NCBI GenBank assembly: GCA_900317835.1
Contig: ONIL01000007.1
Location: forward strand, 3,527-67,526
Origin: an uncultured Prevotellaceae bacterium
GTDB taxonomy: Bacteria > Bacteroidota > Bacteroidia > Bacteroidales > Muribaculaceae
Length of the DNA stretch: 64,000 bases
Reading direction: 5' to 3'
This document shows, in pieces, positions 6,553 to 33,727 of this stretch. The notes under the pieces are model-generated. The model did not search any database. It had not been told where the DNA came from and worked only from the letters and a program-made list of their open reading frames with translations. Both the position numbers and the translations under genes were made by a program. Position 1 is the first letter of the stretch. Every line of letters begins with the position of its first letter.

Positions 6553-6560
6553 TACTTTTG
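6553..6560 (+). promoter_or_regulatory. Bacteroidetes sigma-A -7 element (TACTTTTG) for the DUF5689-like gene
   Basis: Matches TAnnTTTG; context nearly identical to the promoter at 10258. Confidence 0.7.
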
Positions 6561-6621
6561 CGGCCAATTTAAAACAAGGTAGTGATGTACTGGTGTTATA
6601 TCTACACACTTTTTATAAAAA

Positions 6622-6730
6622 GTAGCGGGGAAACGATAAAACCGTTCTTCAAACCGCTGCGACATGCTGACGCTACCACTGGCTGCGCTTCATTAGATGG
6701 AATAGACCGCTAATGTGGCGCGATTTTTTT
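6622..6730 (+). promoter_or_regulatory. Structured 5' leader, copy 1 (stem-loop plus terminator-like hairpin); candidate riboswitch/attenuator
   Basis: GTAGCGG/CCGCTGC stem 6622-6660; hairpin 6685-6721 followed by T7 at 6724-6730; paralogous copy at 10333-10444. Confidence 0.7.
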
Positions 6731-6789: not shown

Positions 6790-8238
6790 ATGCAACACAA
6801 AGCCAAATTCTCCATGTTGGCAGCGATGTCCTGTAAGGATTCGACTGCATGGTCCCTGTCGGCAGTGCGTCACGACCGACGACTCTTCAAGCGCTTGCTC
6901 ATTTACTGTGGAATGCTATTCATGCTGGTTATTGCCACCTCGTGCAACGAGGAATTCGACATTCCACCGATGAAGTCCCCTCCCCCTCCCAACATGTCCA
7001 TCGCCGAGTTCAAGGCCAAGTACTGGCGCGACACGGTTAACTACGTTGACACCGTTCAAGACAACGATATCATCCACGGCTGGATCACCAGCACCGATGA
7101 GACGGGCAACATTTACAACACCATCTACATCATGGATGAGTCGGGCGTTGGGCTGCCCATCGCCGTGAGCAGCAGGGACATGTACACCCGATATCGCCTT
7201 GGAGCCGAAGTCGTATTGGAGATGAAGGGATATCATGTGGGCAAAATCACAGGCATGATGCAAGTGGGAGCACCCTACTTCTACAAGAACACTAATGTGT
7301 GGGAAACCAGCACCATGAATGAAGACACCTGGAAAAAACTGGGTCAAGTCAACGGATTTCCCGACTTGAGCAAGGTGGATACCACCGAGATCACCCTTGA
7401 TCAAATCCTAGGCAAAAACGACGCCGAGACCCTCATCAAATATCAGGGGTTGCTGGTGCGCATCAATGATGTGACCTTTGAGAACGCCAATGGCATAACC
7501 ACTTATTCCGATAAGAATCAAACGGTCAACCGCCGCATTGCGGACAGCAACGGCAAGAAACTGAATGTGCGCATGAGCAACTATGCCACCTTCGGCGATT
7601 CCATCCTGCCCAAGAGCGGTGTCGATATCGTGGGCTTGTTGGGCTACTTTGCCACCAAGGCTAACCCCAACGATCCATGGCAAATCTATCTGCGCACCAT
7701 CGATGATGTGATTGTTCGCCCGCCTCGCCCCGTGACGTGGGCCGATTTTGAGACCATCAGCGGGCACACCACCAATATGGGGACCTTTACCACCGAGGCC
7801 GGATGGGTGGCCACAAACTGCATGATGTTTGAAGGCGGCGACAAGGATGCCAATCCCGTTTTCGCCTTTATCGGCACAGCCACTAACAAACTCGCCACCT
7901 ACGCCAAGGCCCCGACCTTGAACGGTGGCACCGATGCCGTGGGGACTGTCGTCTCGCCTGTTCTTAACGGCGGCATGACGCGTCTGCGGTTTTCCTACGG
8001 CTACGCTTTCTCAGGCAAACAGCTTGCTTGTCGCGTCGATGTCAAGCAGAACGGCACGGTGGTCAAGTCATGGACGGTCGCCAATAATGACGTACAGACT
8101 AAAACCGCCTATTCCTTTGATGAGGAATGCCGTGTGGAGGGCGAATTCACCATCGAGTTCACTAACCTTTGCCCATCGGGCAAAACAGGCAAGACCGACC
8201 GGTTATCGATCTGGAACATCAACTGGGATATTGAATGA
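6790..8238 (+). CDS. DUF5689-like OB-fold surface lipoprotein
   Basis: Lipobox IATSC-NEEFD; IHGWITSTDETGNIYNTIYIMDESG, LVRINDVTF, VRMSNYATF and VDIVGLL motifs recalled for DUF5689 proteins; start uncertain (6790 or 6913). Confidence 0.75.
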   Translation: MQHKAKFSMLAAMSCKDSTAWSLSAVRHDRRLFKRLLIYCGMLFMLVIATSCNEEFDIPPMKSPPPPNMSIAEFKAKYWRDTVNYVDTVQDNDIIHGWITSTDETGNIYNTIYIMDESGVGLPIAVSSRDMYTRYRLGAEVVLEMKGYHVGKITGMMQVGAPYFYKNTNVWETSTMNEDTWKKLGQVNGFPDLSKVDTTEITLDQILGKNDAETLIKYQGLLVRINDVTFENANGITTYSDKNQTVNRRIADSNGKKLNVRMSNYATFGDSILPKSGVDIVGLLGYFATKANPNDPWQIYLRTIDDVIVRPPRPVTWADFETISGHTTNMGTFTTEAGWVATNCMMFEGGDKDANPVFAFIGTATNKLATYAKAPTLNGGTDAVGTVVSPVLNGGMTRLRFSYGYAFSGKQLACRVDVKQNGTVVKSWTVANNDVQTKTAYSFDEECRVEGEFTIEFTNLCPSGKTGKTDRLSIWNINWDIE

Positions 8239-8301
8239 ACGTTTTCCTCATGACACTTGCAAGAGTGAGATAAAACTAGTATCTTTGCGGTTGATGAAGT
8301 G

Positions 8302-8898
8302 ATGGAGAACAAATATGAAAATATCATCATTGGCATCGACCCCGGCACCAACGTGATGGGATATGCCCTGCTGGGGGTGAACGACAAGACACCACAACTC
8401 ATTGTCATGGGCGTGCTGCAGCTCAACCGCATGGAGGACCATTACATGAGGCTGAGGCACATCTATGAGCGCGTGAGCGGCGTGATTGCCGAGTACATGC
8501 CCGACGAGATGGCGATCGAGGCTCCGTTCTACGGCAAGAACGTGCAGTCAATGCTCAAACTGGGACGCGCCCAGGGCGTGGCGATGGTCGCAGCCTTGAA
8601 CCGCGAAATTCCCATCACCGAGTATGAGCCGCGCAAGATCAAAATGGCCATCACGGGTAACGGTGCAGCCAGCAAGGAACAGGTGGCGATGATGCTGCAA
8701 CGCACGCTGCACATCGACGAGGCCCAGATGCCCGCCCTACTCGACGCCACCGATGCCCTTGCCGCCGCCTTGTGCCACTTCTATGAGCGCCAAAAGCCCA
8801 TCTCCAGCCACGGCACCAAGTCCTGGAAGGCTTTCATTGCCCAACATCCTGACCGCGTGTCCAACCGCTCAAAAGAGCCCACCGCCAAGGCGCAATAG
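8302..8898 (+). CDS. ruvC: Holliday junction resolvase RuvC
   Basis: [33 protein letters not shown]. Confidence 0.97.
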
Positions 8899-8964: not shown

Positions 8965-10194
8965 ATGAAAAAGTTATCATTATTATTGTTTCTTGCCCTC
9001 CTTTGGGCTGCGGCCACCCCTGTGCTGGCCGGCTCCACGTTAAATGCCAACCCCGAAAAGAGGGTAATACCGACGACTGGAGTTTTTTATGATGTAGTGT
9101 GCATGTCAGATGTATATGATGTCACAGATACTAATGATGGTTACCTGATAGAGCCATCAGCACCGTCACAGTGCGGCATGCTGGCATTTTGCCGAGAAGA
9201 GGACGACCTCATGTTTGTTAGTCTCTTCAATGACCTCATGCTCATCGAGATTGACCGCGACAACATGAGCGCATTGCTCAATGAAAACTACTCAGAGGAC
9301 AGCAATGTCTCGACATCAGGCTTGCAGACGGTCACCACCGAGATCCACTACTACCTCTACTCAGAAGACTGCTTGAATGGTTTCCATGAAGAATCCAGCC
9401 CAGTGCAGGGCCACATTAATCCCGATGGATCAATCTCATTTGACAGTTTCGTTGTGGAGACCGAGCGCATTGTCACCATTACCAACAGTTGGTCCCATCA
9501 ATTGATTTCATCCGAGACGACAACCAGCCGCAACCTCTACCGCAGCATGGTTTTGGCCAAGCCCAACGGAGTTCACCGCTTCAACAAGCCTGCTGAGCCC
9601 GATCCGGGAACCGTGCAGCCAATGAGTAATGGTTTCGACAATCTGCCGAGGATTGTGCCCGTTTACATCGTTCAGCGCGACGACACGGTCATGGTGTGGA
9701 ACCTCTATAACATGGGAGGATTCAACCGCATGGTCATCGACAACGGTTTCTTTGACTGGCCATGGCAGCAGTGCGGCTATAACGAGGATGGTGGCTGCTG
9801 GTACAATTACACGGCCTATCGTTCCTATACACCCCAAGGAGAACCCATGCTTTCGGTAGTAACCTATCTGCACCGTCTGCAAGGAGTAAAAGGCAAGGTG
9901 ACACAGGATGGAATGACATGGGGCAACACCACATTTGGCAACGGCAAGGGAGTATGGTCGGCCGATATATTCTGCGACAACACCTTGACTTTCAAAGACA
10001 AGAGCTTTGACTTCACACCCACGGTTTGGAACATCAGCGACGTGACACGGGTGATTGACGGCATCTTGACCAGTGCTCCCGAAATCATCCTCCTGCCATC
10101 CAGTGACCCGAATGATGATGGAGACGTGGACATCAGCGACGTCACTTGGCTCATCGACAGGCTTCTCCTTGGCAATCCCGACAACGGTCAATAG
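8965..10194 (+). CDS. Secreted protein with degenerate C-terminal dockerin
   Basis: SPI signal peptide (AATPVLA); C-terminal NISDVTRVID...DPNDDGDVDISDVTWLIDRLL. Confidence 0.75.
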   Translation: MKKLSLLLFLALLWAAATPVLAGSTLNANPEKRVIPTTGVFYDVVCMSDVYDVTDTNDGYLIEPSAPSQCGMLAFCREEDDLMFVSLFNDLMLIEIDRDNMSALLNENYSEDSNVSTSGLQTVTTEIHYYLYSEDCLNGFHEESSPVQGHINPDGSISFDSFVVETERIVTITNSWSHQLISSETTTSRNLYRSMVLAKPNGVHRFNKPAEPDPGTVQPMSNGFDNLPRIVPVYIVQRDDTVMVWNLYNMGGFNRMVIDNGFFDWPWQQCGYNEDGGCWYNYTAYRSYTPQGEPMLSVVTYLHRLQGVKGKVTQDGMTWGNTTFGNGKGVWSADIFCDNTLTFKDKSFDFTPTVWNISDVTRVIDGILTSAPEIILLPSSDPNDDGDVDISDVTWLIDRLLLGNPDNGQ

Positions 10195-10257: not shown

Positions 10258-10265
10258 TACTTTTG
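10258..10265 (+). promoter_or_regulatory. Sigma-A -7 element (TACTTTTG) for the TonB-dependent transporter operon
   Basis: TAnnTTTG match in an AT-rich intergenic region. Confidence 0.7.
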
Positions 10266-10328
10266 CAGGCGAAAATATGACGCGTTTTTAAAGTGAAAAT
10301 ACATTCTTTTGGCATACCCTTTAGGATA

Positions 10329-10444
10329 TCTTGTAGCGGTGAGGCGGCAAGCCAGTTCTATAACCCGCTGCAAGAAAGTATAGCCAGCAACACACGCGCC
10401 ACATTAGACGGGGGATATTCCGCTAATGTGGCGCGAATTCTTTT
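10329..10444 (+). promoter_or_regulatory. Structured 5' leader, copy 2; candidate riboswitch/attenuator
   Basis: TCTTGTAGCGG/CCGCTGCAAGA stem; CGCGCCACATTAG-A-CGG/CCG-CTAATGTGGCGCG hairpin 10395-10435, then ATTCTTTT. Confidence 0.7.
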
Positions 10445-10517
10445 GTCAAAAAGCAATAGAAACAAACAATTTTTTAATAATTCATCATTTTTTCATTCAC
10501 TTAAACAAGTTTTTAAC

Positions 10518-13500
10518 ATGTTGAGAACAGTAAAGCTTTTAGCATTGGTGGCAATGTTCTTTGTAGCATTGTCGTCAAGCGCTCAGGTGACGACCTCGGC
10601 ACTGTCGGGTGTTGTGACCGATGAAAACCAGCAGGCGATGATTGGTGCTACGATTACCGCCCTGCACACCCCTTCGGGCACGAAGTACAACGCCGTGACC
10701 AATATGGACGGCCGTTACACCATCCAGGGTATGCGTCCTGGTGGCCCGTACACCGTGACGGTGAGCTATGTGGGCTATGAGTCCCGCAGCATTAATGGGG
10801 TGTCACTGCAACTGGCCGAGACCTCAAATCTTGACTTCGACATGAGTGTTGACGCTAATGCGCTGGGTGAAGTTGTCGTTACCGCGGCTGCCACCAAGTT
10901 CAGGGCTGAAAAGACCGGTGCTGCTACCAATATCAACAGCGCACAGATCACCAATCTGCCCACCGTGACCCGCAGTCTGACTGACATTACCCGCCTGTCG
11001 CCCTACGGTGGTAACGGCATGAGCTTTGCCGGTACCGACGGTCGTACCGCCAACTTCACGGTCGATGGTGCAAACTTCAACAACAACTTCGGTTTGAGCG
11101 ACAATCTGCCTGGTGGTGGCAACCCCATCAGCATTGAAGCCATCGAGGAGATGCAGGTTGTGATTTCACCCTACGACGTTCGTCAGACCAACTTCATTGG
11201 TGGTGGTGTGAATGCTGTGACCAAGAGCGGTACCAACAAATTCCGCGGCAGTGCTTACATCTTCCACCGCAACGAGAACATGCGTGGTGATGCTGTTGAG
11301 CGCACCCAAATCGGTCAGGCACGCGAGAAATTCAAGGTGACTACCTACGGTGCTACCATCGGCGGCCCGATCATCAAGGACAAGCTGTTCTTCTTTGTGA
11401 ACGGTGAGATGACCAAGCAACCGACCATCGTCAACATGTGGCGTGCTTCACAGAACGGTGTTGCCGTTCCTGACCAGTACATCTCTCGCACCTCCCTGGC
11501 CGACCTGGAGCGCGTGAGCAATTTCGTAAAGAGCAAATATGGCTATGACACGGGTTCATGGACCAACTTCCCCGCCGACGAGAACAACTACAAGCTGCTC
11601 GCCCGCCTGGACTGGAACATCAACCATGACCACCACTTGGCCCTGCGCTACAACTACACCAAGAACCGCTACTGGAGCAATCCCAACGCCACCTCGATGG
11701 ACGGTGGCACCCGTATGGCTACTGCCCGTGTATCTCAGAAGTCCTTCTCGTTTGCCAACTCAATGTATGGCATGGACAACCTGGTACACTCCTTCTCATT
11801 TGACCTGAACAGCCGCCTGAGCGACAACCTGTCGAACCAGTTCCTGGCTACCCTGTCTAAGCTGGACGACATCCGCGCCAGCAACTCGAGCGAGTTCCCC
11901 TTCATCGACATCACCATGACCGATGAGAATGGCGACACCGACAACTACATGGCCCTGGGTTATGAGTTGTTCACCTGGAACAACGCCGTTCACAACACCA
12001 TCTGGAACCTGCGTGACGACGTGACCTGGTACTATGGTAACCACAAGATCATGGGTGGTCTGTCATTTGAGCATCAGATGGCCGACAACCAGTACATGCG
12101 CAATGGTACCGGTTACTACCGCTACAACAGCGTTGACGACTTTATCAACGGTGCCGCTCCCGAGGTCGTTTGCTTGACCTACGGTTACGGTAGCGAGACC
12201 AAGCCTGCTGCCCGCGTGCAGTTCAACAAGGCTGGTATCTATGCTCAGGACGAGTGGAACGTGACCAAGAACTTCAAGCTGACCTACGGTCTGCGTCTGG
12301 ATGGTCTGTTCTTCAATAATGGTGACCTGATCACCAACAACGCCATTCTGGCCCTTGACTACTATGACAACGACGGCAACGTCCGCCACATCGACACCGG
12401 CAAGTGGCCGAGCAGCAACCTGATCGTGCAACCCCGCTTGGGCTTCAACTGGGACGTATTTGGCAACAAGGCACTCAGGGTGCGCGGTGGTACGGGTCTG
12501 TTCTCGGGCCGTCTGCCCCTGGTATTCTTCACCAACATGCCCACCAACGGTGGTCTGGTTCAGTATCAGGCACAGCTCAACAGCAAGAACACCGACATGA
12601 GCCTGTTTGCTGGCGGTCTTGTAACTGACTCCGAGGGACATGCCACTATCACAGCCCTGCGCAACAAACTCATCGAAATGGGTTATCCCGAGAACGTGAC
12701 TTCCGACATGGGTACTGTTCCCTCGGCTGTCAATGGTGTGGATCCCAACTTCAAGATGCCGATGGTATGGAAGACCTCATTGGCTGTTGATTACCAGATT
12801 CCTGTATCGTTCCCCTTCAGCGTAACTATCGAGGGTATCTTCAACAAGAACATCAACGCTGCCAGCATCAGCGACTGGTCTATCCCCAGCGTGGGTGGTT
12901 ATGCACGCTTCAACGGTGCTGACAACCGTCCCATCTATCCCGCCGGTTTCCGCACGGGAACCAAGGCCTTCGTCCTGGAGAACACTAGCCGCGGTTATGG
13001 CTGGATTGGCAACATCACCTTGAATGCTGATCCCACCGACTGGTTGAGCCTGATGGCTGCCTATACCCACACCGTGCAGAAGGAAGTCACCGGTATGCCC
13101 GGTAGCGCTGCTGAGAGTGCCTTCACCTATGTTCCCACCATTGAGGGTCCCAACAACATCAAGCTGCACAACTCGCAGTATGTAACTCCTGACCGTTTCA
13201 TCTTCTCGGCAACCGGTCATGACCACAGCGGTAACCACTACGGCCTGATTTATGAGGCTTGGCGTGGCGGTTACAACTACTCCTACATGATGGCCAACGA
13301 CATGAACGGCGACGGCTACAACTACGACGCACTCTACATCCCCACCGACGAGCAAGTGGCCAACCGCGAGTTCCGCTTCGTGAGCGAGGGTGACAAGAAC
13401 CGCTTCATGGACTATGTACACGCCAACGACTACCTGAAGAACCATCAGGGCGAGTATGCCGAGGCCTATAGCCTGTACAATCCCTGGGTTCACCGCATCG

Positions 13501-13802
13501 ACCTGAGCTACAAGCACGACTTCAATGTGAACGTGTGCGGCGCTAAGCACACCCTGCAGCTGCTCTTTGACGTGAAGAACGTCTTGAACCTGTTCAACTC
13601 GAGCTGGGGCGTGAGCAAGTATCTCAATCCCGAGATCGGCAGCGATCCCCGCATCCTCAAGTATGAGGGCGTTGACGCACAGGGTTACGCCACCTTCTCG
13701 ACTCCCAAGTCGATCGACGGTGCCACCAAGACCTTCGTTCCCAACAAGGCCATCGGTCAGTGCTGGAATGCATCTATCGGTATTAAGTACATCTTTAACT
13801 AA
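10518..13802 (+). CDS. TonB-dependent transporter (Oar-like, with N-terminal carboxypeptidase-regulatory-like domain)
   Basis: SPI (SSSA-Q), LSGVVTDE..MIGATI N-domain, plug motif GRTANFTVDGANFNNNFGL / GGVNAVTKSGTN, C-terminal IGIKYIF; ATG 10518 preferred over GTG 10293. Confidence 0.92.
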   Translation: MLRTVKLLALVAMFFVALSSSAQVTTSALSGVVTDENQQAMIGATITALHTPSGTKYNAVTNMDGRYTIQGMRPGGPYTVTVSYVGYESRSINGVSLQLAETSNLDFDMSVDANALGEVVVTAAATKFRAEKTGAATNINSAQITNLPTVTRSLTDITRLSPYGGNGMSFAGTDGRTANFTVDGANFNNNFGLSDNLPGGGNPISIEAIEEMQVVISPYDVRQTNFIGGGVNAVTKSGTNKFRGSAYIFHRNENMRGDAVERTQIGQAREKFKVTTYGATIGGPIIKDKLFFFVNGEMTKQPTIVNMWRASQNGVAVPDQYISRTSLADLERVSNFVKSKYGYDTGSWTNFPADENNYKLLARLDWNINHDHHLALRYNYTKNRYWSNPNATSMDGGTRMATARVSQKSFSFANSMYGMDNLVHSFSFDLNSRLSDNLSNQFLATLSKLDDIRASNSSEFPFIDITMTDENGDTDNYMALGYELFTWNNAVHNTIWNLRDDVTWYYGNHKIMGGLSFEHQMADNQYMRNGTGYYRYNSVDDFINGAAPEVVCLTYGYGSETKPAARVQFNKAGIYAQDEWNVTKNFKLTYGLRLDGLFFNNGDLITNNAILALDYYDNDGNVRHIDTGKWPSSNLIVQPRLGFNWDVFGNKALRVRGGTGLFSGRLPLVFFTNMPTNGGLVQYQAQLNSKNTDMSLFAGGLVTDSEGHATITALRNKLIEMGYPENVTSDMGTVPSAVNGVDPNFKMPMVWKTSLAVDYQIPVSFPFSVTIEGIFNKNINAASISDWSIPSVGGYARFNGADNRPIYPAGFRTGTKAFVLENTSRGYGWIGNITLNADPTDWLSLMAAYTHTVQKEVTGMPGSAAESAFTYVPTIEGPNNIKLHNSQYVTPDRFIFSATGHDHSGNHYGLIYEAWRGGYNYSYMMANDMNGDGYNYDALYIPTDEQVANREFRFVSEGDKNRFMDYVHANDYLKNHQGEYAEAYSLYNPWVHRIDLSYKHDFNVNVCGAKHTLQLLFDVKNVLNLFNSSWGVSKYLNPEIGSDPRILKYEGVDAQGYATFSTPKSIDGATKTFVPNKAIGQCWNASIGIKYIFN

Positions 13803-13825: not shown

Positions 13826-15343
13826 ATGAAACTCAAATATTTTATTTCGTTTTTTGCACTGGTAGCCCTCTTGTCGAGCTGCTCGGATGACGATGCGATG
13901 ACATTGTTTGATGAGATTCAGGTTTCGTCGTCCTATGTGGCCATTGATGAGGCTGGTGGATCTAACACGATTACCCTCAACGCCAAGGAAGCTTGGACGT
14001 TTGACTCCGAGGAACTGCCCGAATGGTTGACCGTCAGCCCGATGAACGGTGGTGCCGGTGAGACTAACGTGACCTTCAGCGCTGAAGCTGCCCCCGACGG
14101 CCGCACCGCTGTCCTCCACATTGCTTGTGGCGACAAGAAGCAGACCATCAACGTGATCCAGGGTCTTGCTACCGTTAGCGAGGCTACTTGCGCCGAGGTC
14201 ATTTCAGGCCCCGAGAGCAAAACCTACCGTGTGACCGGTACCGTGAAGTCGATTGTTAACACGACCTACGGTAACTGGTATCTGGAAGATGAGACCGGCG
14301 AGGTATACATCTATGGAACGCTGGATGCCAAGGGTGGCACCAAGAACTTCCTGAGCTGGGGCATGGAGGTTGGTGACATTGTCACCGTCGAGGGTCCCAA
14401 GACCGTTTATAACGGTACTGTAGAGCTGGTTGACGTGACCGTCATCAATATCCAGAAGTCGCTCGTCAAGGTCGAGGGTTATGACCCCGAGGATGCTACC
14501 ATTCCTTTGGAGGGTGGCAACGTGGCCGTTAGCCTGAGCTGCAAGACCAACAACGGCATCTCGGTCGAGATTCCCGAGGATGCCAAGAGCTGGCTGGGCA
14601 TCGTCTCCATCACTGGTGGCGCTGAGCCCGTGGTAACCTTCCATGCCAATGCCAACAATGGCGGCGACCGCAGCACTACTGTAGTCTTCAAGACCACCGA
14701 TGACAAGGGCAAGGAATACACCGCCCAGGCAACTATTTTCCAGAAGGGCGCTATCGTTGCTTGCTCGATTGCCGAGTTCCTGGAGGCTCCTGTGGGCGAC
14801 ACCCAGTACCGCATCACTGGTGTGATCACCCAGGTAGCTAACCCCACCTATGGCAATGTTTACGTTCGTGACTGGTCTGGTGAGACCTACGTCTACGGCA
14901 TCGGCGCCAAGGGTGACTTTGAGGCTGCTGGTCTCAAGGTTGGCGACGTTGTGACCCTCGTGGGTAAGCGCGGCGAGTACAAGGGCGATCCTCAGATGAC
15001 TGGCGCGATCCTCGAGGCCAGCATCCCCGTGACCCCCATCGACATCGACTCGTTCCTGGATCAGCCCGATGATCCCAACACCTACTACATGCTGACGGGT
15101 ACCATTACCGAGATTGCCAACCCGACCTACGGCAACCTCTACCTTGAGGACGAGACCAACTCGGTATATGTCTATGGTACTTATCCCGGATGGGGCGCTA
15201 CTGGCGACAACCGCAAGAATTGGCTTGAGACCGCAGGTATTGAGGTCGGCGACAAGCTCTCGGTTATCGGCGTCAAGAGCACCTATAACGGCACTCCGCA
15301 GTTGGCCAACGGCATCTACTTCTCTCACGAGAAGGCCCAGTAA
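13826..15343 (+). CDS. Surface lipoprotein with BACON domains and three OB-fold repeats
   Basis: Lipobox LLSSC-SDDD; BACON-like WLTVSP/WLGIVS segments; three repeats of (Y/R)xxTGxIxxIxNxTYGNxYLxDxTGxVYVYG...VGDxVT. Confidence 0.8.
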   Translation: MKLKYFISFFALVALLSSCSDDDAMTLFDEIQVSSSYVAIDEAGGSNTITLNAKEAWTFDSEELPEWLTVSPMNGGAGETNVTFSAEAAPDGRTAVLHIACGDKKQTINVIQGLATVSEATCAEVISGPESKTYRVTGTVKSIVNTTYGNWYLEDETGEVYIYGTLDAKGGTKNFLSWGMEVGDIVTVEGPKTVYNGTVELVDVTVINIQKSLVKVEGYDPEDATIPLEGGNVAVSLSCKTNNGISVEIPEDAKSWLGIVSITGGAEPVVTFHANANNGGDRSTTVVFKTTDDKGKEYTAQATIFQKGAIVACSIAEFLEAPVGDTQYRITGVITQVANPTYGNVYVRDWSGETYVYGIGAKGDFEAAGLKVGDVVTLVGKRGEYKGDPQMTGAILEASIPVTPIDIDSFLDQPDDPNTYYMLTGTITEIANPTYGNLYLEDETNSVYVYGTYPGWGATGDNRKNWLETAGIEVGDKLSVIGVKSTYNGTPQLANGIYFSHEKAQ

Positions 15344-15365
15344 GCCAATTACGCATAACATTTCA

Positions 15366-15399
15366 AAAAGGGGAGTCACCATCACGGCGACTCCCTTTT
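15366..15399 (+). terminator. Intrinsic terminator after the TBDT-lipoprotein operon
   Basis: AAAAGGGGAGTCACC-atcac-GGCGACTCCCTTTT. Confidence 0.8.
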
Positions 15400-15414
15400 A
15401 TGTCTCAAACGACC

Positions 15415-15441
15415 GCACGTCTCACGACGTGCCACCCTGCG
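15415..15441. repeat. 27-bp REP-like palindromic repeat, copy 1
   Basis: GCACGTCTCACGACGTGCCACCCTGCG, identical to 15610-15636; internal GCACGT/ACGTGC hairpin. Confidence 0.8.
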
Positions 15442-15542
15442 GCAACAACGTCCCCACAGTGGAGCATCCCGCTACGCGGCAAGCTTCACTTCGGGGCAGG
15501 ATGACACGATCCATCGTGCCGCACCTCTTCAAGGTGCGGTCG

Positions 15543-15574
15543 TTTGCACGTTTCAATTATTATCACTACCTTTG
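15543..15574 (+). promoter_or_regulatory. Sigma-A promoter (TTTG-N20-TACCTTTG) of the phosphodiesterase gene
   Basis: Both -33 and -7 consensus elements with a 20-nt spacer. Confidence 0.75.
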
Positions 15575-15609
15575 TAGAAAATAACAGACACCTTAAGCAA
15601 GGCACAACT

Positions 15610-15636
15610 GCACGTCTCACGACGTGCCACCCTGCG
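15610..15636. repeat. 27-bp REP-like palindromic repeat, copy 2
   Basis: Exact direct repeat of 15415-15441. Confidence 0.8.
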
Positions 15637-15746
15637 ACGTTGGTTTACCCACAGAGGGTGAGTCATAACAGGTTAACAACTATATCAGGTCTTTGACCAG
15701 TTTCAATTGAGTAAATATAGACTAAACTGATATTCATACTAGACAC

Positions 15747-16952
15747 ATGATGATGCGAAGAATTTACCTTTTTATTTTGTTGGCAGCCGTGTTGCCATGG
15801 CAGGCATGGGCGGCAGGAAGTGACACTTACACGGTGATCATCTCGCTCGACGGCCTGCGGTGGGACTATCTCGACACCTATGACGTGCCATTCTTGAACC
15901 AGCTGGCGCGCGAGGGTGTCAAGGCGGTGATGCAACCGTCATTCCCGAGCAAGACGTTCCCCAACCACTACACGCTGGCGACAGGTCTCACGCCCGACCA
16001 CCACGGCATCATTGCCAACACCTTTTGGGATCGTGAAAAGGGCGTTGAGTTCTCATTGGGCAACAAGGTGACTCGTGCCGATGGCAGTTACTACGGCGGC
16101 GACCCCGTGTGGCTCACGGCCAAGCATCAGGGCGTGAAGACCGCCACCGTGTTTTGGGTGGGTAGCGATGTTGCCGTCAATGGAGAGCATCCCACCTACT
16201 GGCGTGACTACCAAACAGAGCAACTCGGCTTTGAGGAGCGTGTCGATGAAATCATCCGCCTGTTCAAGTTGCCCGAGAAGGACCGTCCCCACCTGGTGAT
16301 GGCCTACTTTGAGGAGCCTGACCGCAGCGGCCACAACTACGGACCGATGAACAGGTTGACACGTCGTGCGATGGAGGACATGGACCTGCTGTTGAGCAAC
16401 CTGTGGGCCCGCATCCAGTTACTGCCCATTGCCGACAAGGTGAATTTCATCATCACGGGCGACCACGGCATGACCAGCGTGGACCCCAAGCGATTTGTCG
16501 ATATCGACGACGTGGTGCCCAAGCAGTGGTATGACCGCTTCTGCAACGACTACCCCACCCTCATCTATGCCAGCGCGCCCGAATACATTGACTCGATTTG
16601 TAACGCATTGCGGGGTGTGGACCACATCCGCGCTTGGAAAAAGCAAGATGTGCCTGCCTATCTGGGTTACGGCACCAACAAGAACATGGGCGATGTGGTA
16701 GTGCTGCCCGACGTGGGCTGGCTCTTTGCCGACAAGCCCAGCAAGAAACAGCGCGGCAGCCACGGCTTTGACCACATGGCTGCCGACATGCAGGTGGGAT
16801 TCCGCGCCGTCGGTCCTGACTTCAAGGTGGGCTATGAGAAACCTGACCGCTTCCGCAACGTGTGCATCTATCCGCTGTTGTGCTACCTGCTAGGGGTAAC
16901 GCCATCGCCCAACGACGGCTCTCTTGACGAAGTGCGCGACATGCTGCGTTGA
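15747..16952 (+). CDS. Nucleotide pyrophosphatase/phosphodiesterase (alkaline phosphatase superfamily), secreted
   Basis: IISLDGLRWD, FPSKTFPNHYTLATG catalytic Thr, EEPDRSGH, TGDHGM, GSHGF; SPI signal. Confidence 0.92.
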   Translation: MMMRRIYLFILLAAVLPWQAWAAGSDTYTVIISLDGLRWDYLDTYDVPFLNQLAREGVKAVMQPSFPSKTFPNHYTLATGLTPDHHGIIANTFWDREKGVEFSLGNKVTRADGSYYGGDPVWLTAKHQGVKTATVFWVGSDVAVNGEHPTYWRDYQTEQLGFEERVDEIIRLFKLPEKDRPHLVMAYFEEPDRSGHNYGPMNRLTRRAMEDMDLLLSNLWARIQLLPIADKVNFIITGDHGMTSVDPKRFVDIDDVVPKQWYDRFCNDYPTLIYASAPEYIDSICNALRGVDHIRAWKKQDVPAYLGYGTNKNMGDVVVLPDVGWLFADKPSKKQRGSHGFDHMAADMQVGFRAVGPDFKVGYEKPDRFRNVCIYPLLCYLLGVTPSPNDGSLDEVRDMLR

Positions 16953-18724: not shown

Positions 18725-18936
18725 AATGTCAGCATTTATAGGTTAATAAAAATAGAATAATCATCACACATATTAGTATTAAGGCGCTTCAGAAATCGCA
18801 CTTCACAAAAACAGCCTTATAGATAATGTCTCATTTTGGCGACATCATCGGTTAAGAATTCATGCTGCGAAAATAAATAAAAAAAACGAACTATTGTAGT
18901 GATGGCTATAATAAGTGTAGTAGGGGTACAAAAAAA

Positions 18937-19034
18937 GGGCAAGTGAGCTACAGCGCGCCGCTACAACCTCGTTACCCTTGCTCCGGTCAAGGCCTGGGGG
19001 ATTGGGAGGGAGCTGGCCGTGTAGGACTTACCCG
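18937..19034 (-). ncRNA. ffs: Signal recognition particle (4.5S) RNA
   Basis: Minus strand reads CGGGUAAGUCCUAC...CCCCAGGCCUUGACCGGAGCAAGGGUAAC...GAGCUCACUUGCCC: long hairpin with CAGG/AGCA SRP loops, TACCTTTG promoter just upstream and U-tract downstream. Confidence 0.85.
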
Positions 19035-19123
19035 ACTGCAAAGGTACTGCTTTTTCCCGAACTGGCAACACTTTTTACTGAAAAATATTCCAAACAAGTC
19101 TTAACCAGCTGACATCAAATGTC

Positions 19124-33170: not shown

Positions 33171-33360
33171 GACATTGGAAATTATTTCGTTTCTGTTTAT
33201 GATAATGGATGAATTTGTTTTAGTGGGGCAAAGGTAAGCAATTTCACTCAACCTCACACCATTTTTCACATCATTTTTATTAACACGACCTCGCACCATC
33301 ACTTTTTGCCTTCAAATAATTGGCCGAATCTAAAAAAAGCCCTACATTTGCATCGTGAAA

Positions 33361-33560
33361 TCAACGTGTTGAGGTTTCCTGCACGATTATGGGTTGCAGG
33401 AATCAAAAGGGAACCAGGTGAAAATCCTAGACAGTACCCGCTGCTGTAACTCCCCACAACACATCGCACGGCATCATGCCACTGGTTGCAACATCACTGC
33501 TGCATCATCACCGGGAAGGCGCCGCCGCGATGAGGGAGAAGTCAGAAGACCTGCCTCCAC
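33361..33560 (+). promoter_or_regulatory. Cobalamin (AdoCbl) riboswitch
   Basis: AGGT...AAAAGGGAACCAGGTGAAAATCCT...CCCGCTGCTGTAA...GCCACTG...GGGAAGGC...AGTCAGAAGACCTGCC (B12 box); TACATTTG promoter at 33343-33350. Confidence 0.93.
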
Positions 33561-33727
33561 ACGGCCTGTTTATCGTGGTTCACGCGGCATTTGGACCCTG
33601 GCGAAGAAAGATGATGCGGACACAAACTGCCCACATTCTCAAGAGATTACCATTTACCACCCATGGTCACTCATGCCTCATGAATTCGCGCTGAAACGTG
33701 AAGTTTAACATTATATATATTAATGAC

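Follow-up and report, generated by a model that had tools for sequence, protein, structure and literature searches.

The 64,000-nucleotide (nt) stretch of DNA analysed here (the window, in which all coordinates are positions) belongs to an uncultured member of the rumen Muribaculaceae. At 10258-10444 it carries a leader, termed leader 2, in front of an operon headed by a TonB-dependent transporter gene. This leader is probably a ribosome-dependent transcription attenuator acting on DNA-scavenging genes of rumen Muribaculaceae, and not a riboswitch. It contains an open reading frame (ORF) whose core is under coding constraint, the ORF reaches into an intrinsic terminator, no second promoter box separates the terminator from the operon, and this layout is conserved among related genomes. 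From this arrangement we infer that the leader is translated and that its translation suppresses termination. A first-pass annotation of the same DNA had proposed a regulatory leader with a conditional terminator, shared by the two units of a small regulon, and that part of its interpretation is supported; the riboswitch-like RNA switch and the mini-ORF that accompanied it are not.

A structured leader ending in an intrinsic terminator

Every element described earlier for 10258-10444 was located in the window sequence, including the -7 box, the 11-base-pair (bp) stem and the terminator with its 13-bp stem and 3 bp after a bulged A. The leader and the spacer behind it are arranged as follows.

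10258-10265, + strand: Bacteroidetes-type -7 promoter box TACTTTTG of leader 2
10277-10291, + strand: four-codon mini-ORF, ATG ACG CGT TTT TAA
10293-10445, + strand: leader ORF with GTG start, reading VKIHSFGIPFRISCSGEAASQFYNPLQESIASNTRATLDGGYSANVARILL; here, lacking a stop codon, it crosses the spacer and joins the transporter gene in frame
10308-10376, + strand: peptide core FGIPFRISCSGEAASQFYNPLQE, under amino-acid constraint, with the rare codons ATA (10314-10316), AGG (10323-10325) and ATA (10326-10328)
10329-10339 / 10365-10375, + strand: helix P1, TCTTGTAGCGG / CCGCTGCAAGA, 11 bp (10 Watson-Crick pairs and one G.U), wholly inside the leader ORF
10343-10345 / 10351-10353, + strand: inner hairpin of P1, GGC / GCC
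10395-10407 / 10423-10435, + strand: stem of the intrinsic terminator, with a bulged A at 10408, further pairs at 10409-10411 / 10420-10422 and a U-rich tail at 10438-10444; leader codons 35-51 overlap it
10445-10517, + strand: AT-rich spacer from the terminator to the transporter start, 68-83 nt long across orthologues

The structured leader is real and conserved, which confirms the initial observation. The comparisons below use 29 orthologous leaders of the same genus (clade A, type 2), taken from 45 genomes positive by blastn. In 29/29 of them a TAnnTTTG box lies 23-33 nt 5' of the leader start codon. In the window, two occurrences of the pattern GTAGCGG-N25-CCGCTGC stand against an expected 0.01, and the 175-nt leader 2 folds more stably than its shuffled versions (z = -3.9), as does the paralogous leader 1 described below (z = -2.9). 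Neither leader has a match beyond noise in Rfam 15, at the gathering threshold or at a permissive one (E <= 10).

The terminator is genuine beyond doubt. Its 13 perfect pairs are followed by three more after the bulge and then by AATTCTTTTG. Compensatory double changes are found in 8 of the 13 stem pairs, and cognate arms pair at -19.1 kcal/mol compared with -15.9 kcal/mol for non-cognate arms (p < 0.0002). The leader is a promoter-proximal regulatory element that ends in a covarying intrinsic terminator.

A conserved leader peptide inside the leader

The frame that begins at GTG 10293 is open in all 29 orthologues, with its start at a single aligned position (ATG in 17, GTG in 10, TTG in 1), and the insertions and deletions within it preserve the frame (12 nt in L016, 3 nt in L012 and L051). 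The 24-codon core FGIPFRITCSGEAASQFYNPLQE, which reads F-G-I-P-F-R-I-T-C-S-G-E-A-A-S-Q-F-Y-N-P-L-Q-E, has a ratio of nonsynonymous to synonymous variation (pN/pS) of 0.30, as against 1.43 and 1.63 in the shifted frames, where 31 and 74 stops occur. Parsimony changes on the maximum-likelihood tree are distributed 50/34/112 over codon positions 1/2/3 of the core (chi-square p = 5e-12). The next 11 codons (32-42), covering the linker and the 5' arm of the terminator, show 61/62/60 and hence no coding periodicity. Because of the open frame, the pN/pS ratio and the codon-position bias, GTG 10293 is very probably where a leader peptide genuinely starts. What matters in this peptide is its first ~30 residues, and the RNA dictates the tail: the C-terminal third is unconstrained and is frameshifted in L008, truncated in L010, L044 and L054, or fused to the transporter in 3/29.

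The window shows one of these fusions, together with L040 and L049; we regard the join as accidental. In the fused ORF, 75 codons stand upstream of ATG 10518, which opens the signal peptide of the transporter. That ATG, conserved as the start in all orthologues, is the true start of the gene, downstream of the naive start, as first proposed. The 75-codon N-terminal extension is the fused leader ORF and lies outside the mature gene, so the annotation of the transporter should be corrected. The earlier description of the ORF from 10293 as an artefact of ORF calling is right in that this ORF is not the N-terminus of the transporter, but it overlooks the conserved leader ORF that GTG 10293 starts. 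Translation from 10293, which had been weighed as a possible start of the transporter, very probably does occur to judge from the coding signature, but it would produce the leader peptide. In three more genomes the stop of the leader and the start of the transporter overlap (GTATGTTGA; GT-ATG-T-TGA), and ribosomes that finish the leader may run into the transporter gene or re-initiate at it.

The mini-ORF at 10277-10291, which the first-pass annotation had singled out just after the predicted start site, is present in the window but not conserved; in the 5' untranslated region (UTR), 7/29 orthologues have an ATG and 3 have a peptide of similar M-T-R type.

The peptide encoded from GTG 10293 contains neither a signal peptide nor a transmembrane segment. 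Four leader peptides had no match in Pfam, and a search of 5.8 billion proteins returned 20 close matches, none of them named. A peptide hidden Markov model (HMM) run against 300 genomes of the family found nothing significant outside the own genome (the best other matches, at E ~0.002-0.01, contain internal stops). This HMM search indicates that the leader peptide is clade-restricted.

The leader stop codon never precedes the terminator

Where the stop codon lies relative to the hairpin was compared in 46 leaders: the 29 type-2 leaders of clade A, 6 type-1 leaders (the paralogous kind, described below) and 11 leaders of divergent clades. In none of them does the stop precede the terminator. 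In clade A (n=29), one stop lies in the 5' arm, one in the loop, one in the 3' arm and two at the U tract; 18 lie 14-47 nt past the terminator, three overlap the transporter start, and the three fused leaders have no stop. In clades B and C the stop is inside the hairpin in 11/11 leaders, as it is in 6/6 type-1 leaders.

Between the terminator and the transporter, a TAnnTTTG box is present in the spacer of 0/29 orthologues, according to a consensus scan in which start sites were judged by consensus alone. Because the spacer has no -7 box, the transporter operon appears to depend on read-through of the terminator. The leader thus has the features of a pyrBI- or bmrB-type attenuator: an open ORF under selection near the promoter, a terminator overlapped by that ORF, and no promoter box in the spacer.

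Helix P1 and the search for an antiterminator

Inside the leader ORF, 95.9% of the cells of helix P1 are paired across the alignment. One pair carries double changes and six carry one-sided G.U changes. Its variation is nearly all both synonymous and pairing-preserving, as in the change from AGC/CCG to AGU/CCA. The loop of P1 has been deleted or rewritten in L016, L013 and L054, and the in-frame deletion in L016 removes the inner hairpin.

With RNAalifold and with single folds truncated before the 3' arm, no conserved partner was found for the 5' arm of the terminator. The alternative pairing of TAGCGG with CCGCTA that had been put forward is absent from about half of the orthologues. The RNA-only switch that the first-pass annotation implied fits poorly with the position of the core stem, which sits inside a conserved and, to judge from its variation, evidently translated ORF.

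Rare codons at fixed positions

ATA accounts for 9% of the Ile codons in the own genome, at 5.5 per thousand, and AGG for 8% of the Arg codons. Yet where the leader core encodes Ile, at two codons, it uses ATA in 53/58 instances and ATC in 0, and the block AGG-ATA-ACT-TGT (AGGATAACTTGT) does not vary, third codon positions included. The peptides of clade B, unrelated in sequence to those of clade A, have ATA at codon 8 in 8/8 and at codon 25 in 7/8; ATA at codon 8 also recurs in leader peptides of clade C (clades B and C were examined in the range L084-L094), and type-1 leaders have ATA between codons 5 and 12. The leader contains no tandem codon runs, and its conserved rare ATA and AGG codons are non-tandem. 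The fixed rare codons may be a timing device, as in bmrB, a sensor codon or the result of an RNA-level constraint.

A paralogous leader and a two-unit regulon

A paralogue of leader 2, termed leader 1, precedes the gene of a DUF5689 protein in the window. It consists of the following elements.

6553-6730, + strand: paralogous leader 1 (nhmmer E = 1.9e-12, peptide HMM E = 0.008)
6553-6560, + strand: -7 box
6585 to 6711-6713, + strand: leader ORF from ATG to TAA (MYWCYIYTLFIKSSGETIKPFFKPLRHADATTGCASLDGIDR), with its stop inside the 3' arm of the terminator
6622-6628 / 6654-6660, + strand: helix P1
6684-6722, + strand: terminator, with the U tract at 6724-6730

The genome-wide search for further copies that the first-pass annotation had proposed was run with the terminator-arm pattern, the peptide HMM and nhmmer with the 29-sequence alignment, and it found exactly two leader copies in the own genome. 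One extra nhmmer match, on C43, had E = 0.26 and was disregarded. The type-1 leaders of the own genome and five others have an ATG-initiated ORF of ~38-42 codons that in each case ends inside the terminator hairpin, and the type-1 elements of these other genomes (G007, G434, G433, G370 and G402) precede DUF5689 genes. The two separately promoted units with their paralogous leaders do form a two-unit regulon as suggested, and the pairing of leader 1 with DUF5689 and of leader 2 with the transporter recurs in other genomes.

The arrangement around the DUF5689 gene varies. In G434 and G433 the transporter leader lies directly 3' of this gene, and in G370 and G402 the gene is followed by those of a dockerin protein and ruvC. 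A third leader-like fragment, L018 (G011:C44:43013-43053), from another genome of the genus, combines TTTTGGCATACCTTAC with a terminator-like hairpin, GCGCCACATTAAACGG...CCGTCAATGTGTAGCG. Its surroundings are GC-rich and separate from the transporter locus, and it may be a decayed or retargeted copy.

Conservation of the layout across divergent clades

The operon is present in 87/133 genomes of the genus. By blastn, the leader lies upstream of the orthologous transporter in 45/133, and further members of the genus carry a diverged form of it. Members too diverged for blastn have the promoter, an ATG 28-30 nt later, an ORF of 42-47 codons and a terminator that contains the stop (11/11). Their ORF holds an internal covarying hairpin, CCUGGCAGU/ACUGCCGGG. 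The peptides of clade B (MALLQFFIFD..PGSQ.YTAGD.ISH) and clade C (MK.FDFLIL..HYPGNQ) cannot be aligned with that of clade A, even though the operon downstream is orthologous. Clade B has a coding bias of its own, with a pN/pS ratio of 0.54 compared with 1.06 and 1.23 in the shifted frames. The leader layout is older than its peptide.

In the sister genus g46, 2/3 orthologous leaders have an ORF that reads into the terminator. An I-P-F-x-x-T-C-like motif, resembling the IPFRITC of clade A, recurs in the type-1 leaders and in the sister genus, and this hints that the motif predates the genus. The leaders L111 and L113 of g46 are ~300 nt long and have the same first bases after the -7 box (CACCCGAAT). 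Their leader ORF contains ILPFNTC or ILPFSTS and ends in the 3' arm of the terminator or in the U tract.

Proposed mechanism of attenuation

In the proposed mechanism, transcription would start a few bases past the -7 box (10258-10265). After ~20 nt of RNA, a ribosome would initiate at GTG 10293 and translate the leader ORF of ~50 codons. The first ~30 codons would encode the conserved peptide and form helix P1, possibly a polymerase pause hairpin that synchronises ribosome and polymerase, and codons ~35-47 would supply the 5' arm, loop and 3' arm of the terminator. When the ribosome follows close behind RNA polymerase, it would cover or melt the 5' arm (10395-10407) at the moment when the polymerase reaches the U tract; the hairpin would not form and transcription would read through into the operon. 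Without a ribosome, or with one that is late or has stalled further upstream, the hairpin would form and a leader transcript of ~170 nt would be released. A close-following ribosome could block the hairpin because the leader ORF invariably extends into the terminator or beyond it, and the ribosome is the only evident anti-terminating agent because no antiterminator helix is conserved.

Leader 1 (6553-6730) is predicted to act in the same way on the DUF5689 gene, and because of this likeness both transcription units would be co-regulated: the DdbD-like binder in one, and the DdbC-like transporter, the OB-fold lipoprotein and the phosphodiesterase in the other. Three inputs are candidates. Polymerase could be slowed by limiting nucleoside triphosphates (NTPs), as in pyrBI, which would fit the scavenging of nucleic acids, though no pause tract is seen; the speed of the ribosome at the conserved rare ATA and AGG codons could vary; or a peptide-specific stall could occur.

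Several points weigh against a ribosome-dependent attenuator. To our knowledge, tight coupling of transcription and translation has not been demonstrated in Bacteroidota. Pure coupling would work with any peptide, so that such a model does not explain why the core is constrained at the amino-acid level. Most clade-A stops lie 14-47 nt past the hairpin, and the stop position is thus not tightly selected. In the sister genus, L112 has an ORF of only 24 codons, with its stop ~60 nt before the hairpin. In three divergent members of the genus (L081, L082 and L095), reading by hand places the end of the ORF in or just after a hairpin, but the hairpins taken by the automated scan were different ones, with no ORF leading into them; nor is there a clear U tract in L095. 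The linker before the terminator (A 36%, G 27%, C 19%, U 17%) contains no homopolymer run or stretch rich in a single nucleotide that could act as an NTP-sensitive pause tract. Covariation support for P1 is marginal in the test of cognate against non-cognate duplexes (p = 0.044). An outer helix, P0 (GGCAUACCUUUC with GAGAGGGUAUCC), appears in single folds of both window copies; the same test does not support it as a family-wide helix (p = 0.09), and it is treated as optional.

Alternative readings of the leader

The conserved peptide invites the reading that it is a metabolite- or state-sensing arrest peptide, in which a core of ~30 residues would stall the ribosome at a defined codon from within the exit tunnel, as TnaC or SpeFL do. 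Its ligand might be a nucleoside, a nucleobase or another product of DNA breakdown, and the position of the stall relative to the 5' arm would set the outcome. Constraint is indeed confined to codons ~6-31 (pN/pS 0.30; 50/34/112), with the next 11 codons free of periodicity; the length of the core roughly matches that of the exit tunnel, and its end is ~6 codons short of the 5' arm of the terminator; the I-P-F-x-x-T-C-like motif extends to type-1 leaders and the sister genus (ILPFNTC / ILPFSTS); and no Pfam family matches the peptides. We nevertheless consider an arrest peptide unlikely. The conservation expected of such peptides (TnaC, SecM, SpeFL) is present within clades only, since the peptides of clades A, B and C cannot be aligned with one another despite the orthologous operon. 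In addition, the residues nearest the peptidyl-transferase centre during a stall at the terminator would be the unconstrained ones, and no known arrest motif is found. In its most specific version, this reading makes the peptide a nascent-chain sensor, an arrest peptide of a new sequence class, which would respond to something released when DNA or nucleotides are broken down and so switch a DNA-utilization transporter. That is a long shot on the present comparisons; if it were true, ddb-type loci would gain their first known regulator, and Bacteroidota their first arrest peptide that senses a metabolite.

A core under purifying selection would also be expected if the ORF were an independent gene for a functional protein of ~35-50 residues, for example a partner of the transporter, with the hairpin as a leaky terminator and read-through incidental or constitutive. 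Gene callers do occasionally predict a hypothetical protein here in metagenomes (the 20 close matches). Such a gene is quite improbable, however, given a C-terminal third that is unconstrained, frameshifted (L008), truncated (L010, L044, L054) or fused (3/29), a stop that never comes before the terminator in 46 leaders, a downstream operon without a promoter box of its own, and peptides that differ wholly between clades while the layout is kept; the lack of a signal peptide or transmembrane segment also counts against it. Very unlikely, finally, is an RNA-only switch in which P1 and its loops form an aptamer for a ligand or protein that controls the terminator, and the open frame is a coincidence. 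The leaders do fold better than shuffled sequences (z = -3.9, -2.9), 96% of P1 is paired, its synonymous changes preserving the pairs, and the invariance of AGGATAACTTGT at third codon positions suggests an extra constraint at the RNA level. But an aptamer would not be expected to vary with a 3-nt period, and the loop of P1 withstands the loss of 12 nt as well as extensive rewriting (L016, L013, L054). No alternative antiterminator pairing is found, Rfam gives no match at gathering or permissive thresholds, and the start codon is conserved as an interchange of ATG and GTG. A ribosome-dependent attenuator is thus the reading that we favour.

The controlled genes resemble a DNA-utilization system

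The genes downstream of the two leaders, and those between them, are listed below.

10518-13802, + strand: TonB-dependent transporter, first gene of the operon, with its true start at ATG 10518 and the signal peptide MLRTVKLLALVAMFFVALSSSAQV (Pfam OMP_b-brl_4, CarboxypepD_reg, TonB_dep_Rec_b-barrel)
13826-15343, + strand: BACON and OB-fold lipoprotein (Pfam)
15747-16952, + strand: type I phosphodiesterase/nucleotide pyrophosphatase (NPP; Pfam); the downstream operon genes span 13826-16952
6790-8238, + strand: DUF5689 (DdbD-like) protein gene, under leader 1 (Pfam DUF5689, E = 1.6e-47)
8299-8898: ruvC, between the DUF5689 gene and the transporter leader
8965-10194: gene of a 409-residue secreted protein with a dockerin-like C-terminus and no Pfam match, also between the DUF5689 gene and the transporter leader

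The ddbABCDEF genes, described in 2025, form a DNA-utilization locus of Bacteroides thetaiotaomicron, and the main text of that description does not treat regulation, the words 'promoter' and 'leader' occurring 0 times (PMC12478041). DdbD, which is annotated as DUF5689, is proposed to act as a DNA-binding lid on the DdbC transporter (PMC12478041). The controlled genes of the window resemble this DdbC/DdbD transporter, the likeness to DdbC being drawn from gene content and domains. As in the ddb locus, a TonB-dependent transporter is combined with a DUF5689 protein, OB-fold and phosphodiesterase genes are present, and there is no SusD and no glycoside hydrolase. Unlike the ddb locus, the units here are split by ruvC and the dockerin-tailed gene. 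No gene of the transporter operon was recognised as a nuclease, and BLASTP detected no similarity between the DUF5689 protein and the BACON/OB lipoprotein.

In the DUF5689 copy of the window the N-terminus is long and odd, and translation may begin at either of two lipoprotein-type starts (M1 at 6790 or M42 at 6913). In orthologous DUF5689 proteins (L076:356-1819, L077:441-1898, L079:416-1873), a signal peptide is followed by a dockerin-like segment (GDLNYDREVNIADMNVL), which the window copy does not have.

Two Rfam families were also recognised in the window: a cobalamin riboswitch at 33355-33572 on the + strand (102.9 bits) and a Bacteroidales small signal recognition particle (SRP) RNA at 18933-19040 on the - strand (99.7 bits).

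Significance and comparison with known attenuators

Leader-peptide attenuation is a textbook mechanism. In Bacteroidota it has so far only been suspected. Small ORFs in long 5' UTRs of B. thetaiotaomicron have been described as needing validation (PMC7366714). If the favoured reading is true, the terminator-inside-leader-ORF design operates in this phylum, and in rumen Muribaculaceae the genes that scavenge extracellular DNA gain a first regulatory handle. The leader would also offer a compact, testable system: a leader of ~190 nt, two paralogues, several natural variants, and a conserved peptide and rare ATA codons that call for an explanation.

A ribosome within ~10-15 nt of a terminator hairpin represses its folding (PMC4824070). 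The terminator of pyrBI lies inside a 135-bp leader gene, and the stop of trp-type leaders lies >20 nt upstream of the terminator (PMC4824070). Like the pyrBI leader of Escherichia coli (pyrL), the leader described here has an ORF of ~45-50 codons that contains an intrinsic terminator, forms no antiterminator helix and precedes genes of the nucleotide economy. In E. coli pyrBI, read-through needs a ribosome close behind RNA polymerase, and the same is proposed here. The two differ in that no relation is seen in sequence or Pfam (there is no PyrL-family peptide), the present leader has no U-rich pause tract, and its core is constrained. The target also differs, being an outer-membrane DNA-scavenging system instead of a biosynthetic enzyme, in the phylum Bacteroidota.

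In the bmrB leader ORF of bmrCD in Bacillus subtilis, the terminator is within the coding region, translation is required and rare codons tune read-through (PMC4191407). That leader, with its ORF of ~53 codons, resembles the present one in its internal terminator, in the rare codons upstream of the terminator and in the transporter genes downstream. Unlike the present leader, where no alternative is conserved, bmrB has three alternative stem-loops including an antiterminator, and it responds to ribosome-targeting antibiotics and controls resistance genes, not nutrient-scavenging genes. With the trp, his and phe leaders, the present one shares a short leader, an intrinsic terminator and an internal hairpin that could pause polymerase. 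It differs from them in having no tandem regulatory codons and no 2:3 antiterminator, and in being about three times longer; its stop, moreover, lies in or after the terminator and not >20 nt before it as in the trp type (PMC4824070). In conclusion, the leader is probably a variation on a known attenuator design, placed in an under-studied phylum and acting on a newly recognised class of nutrient-acquisition genes.

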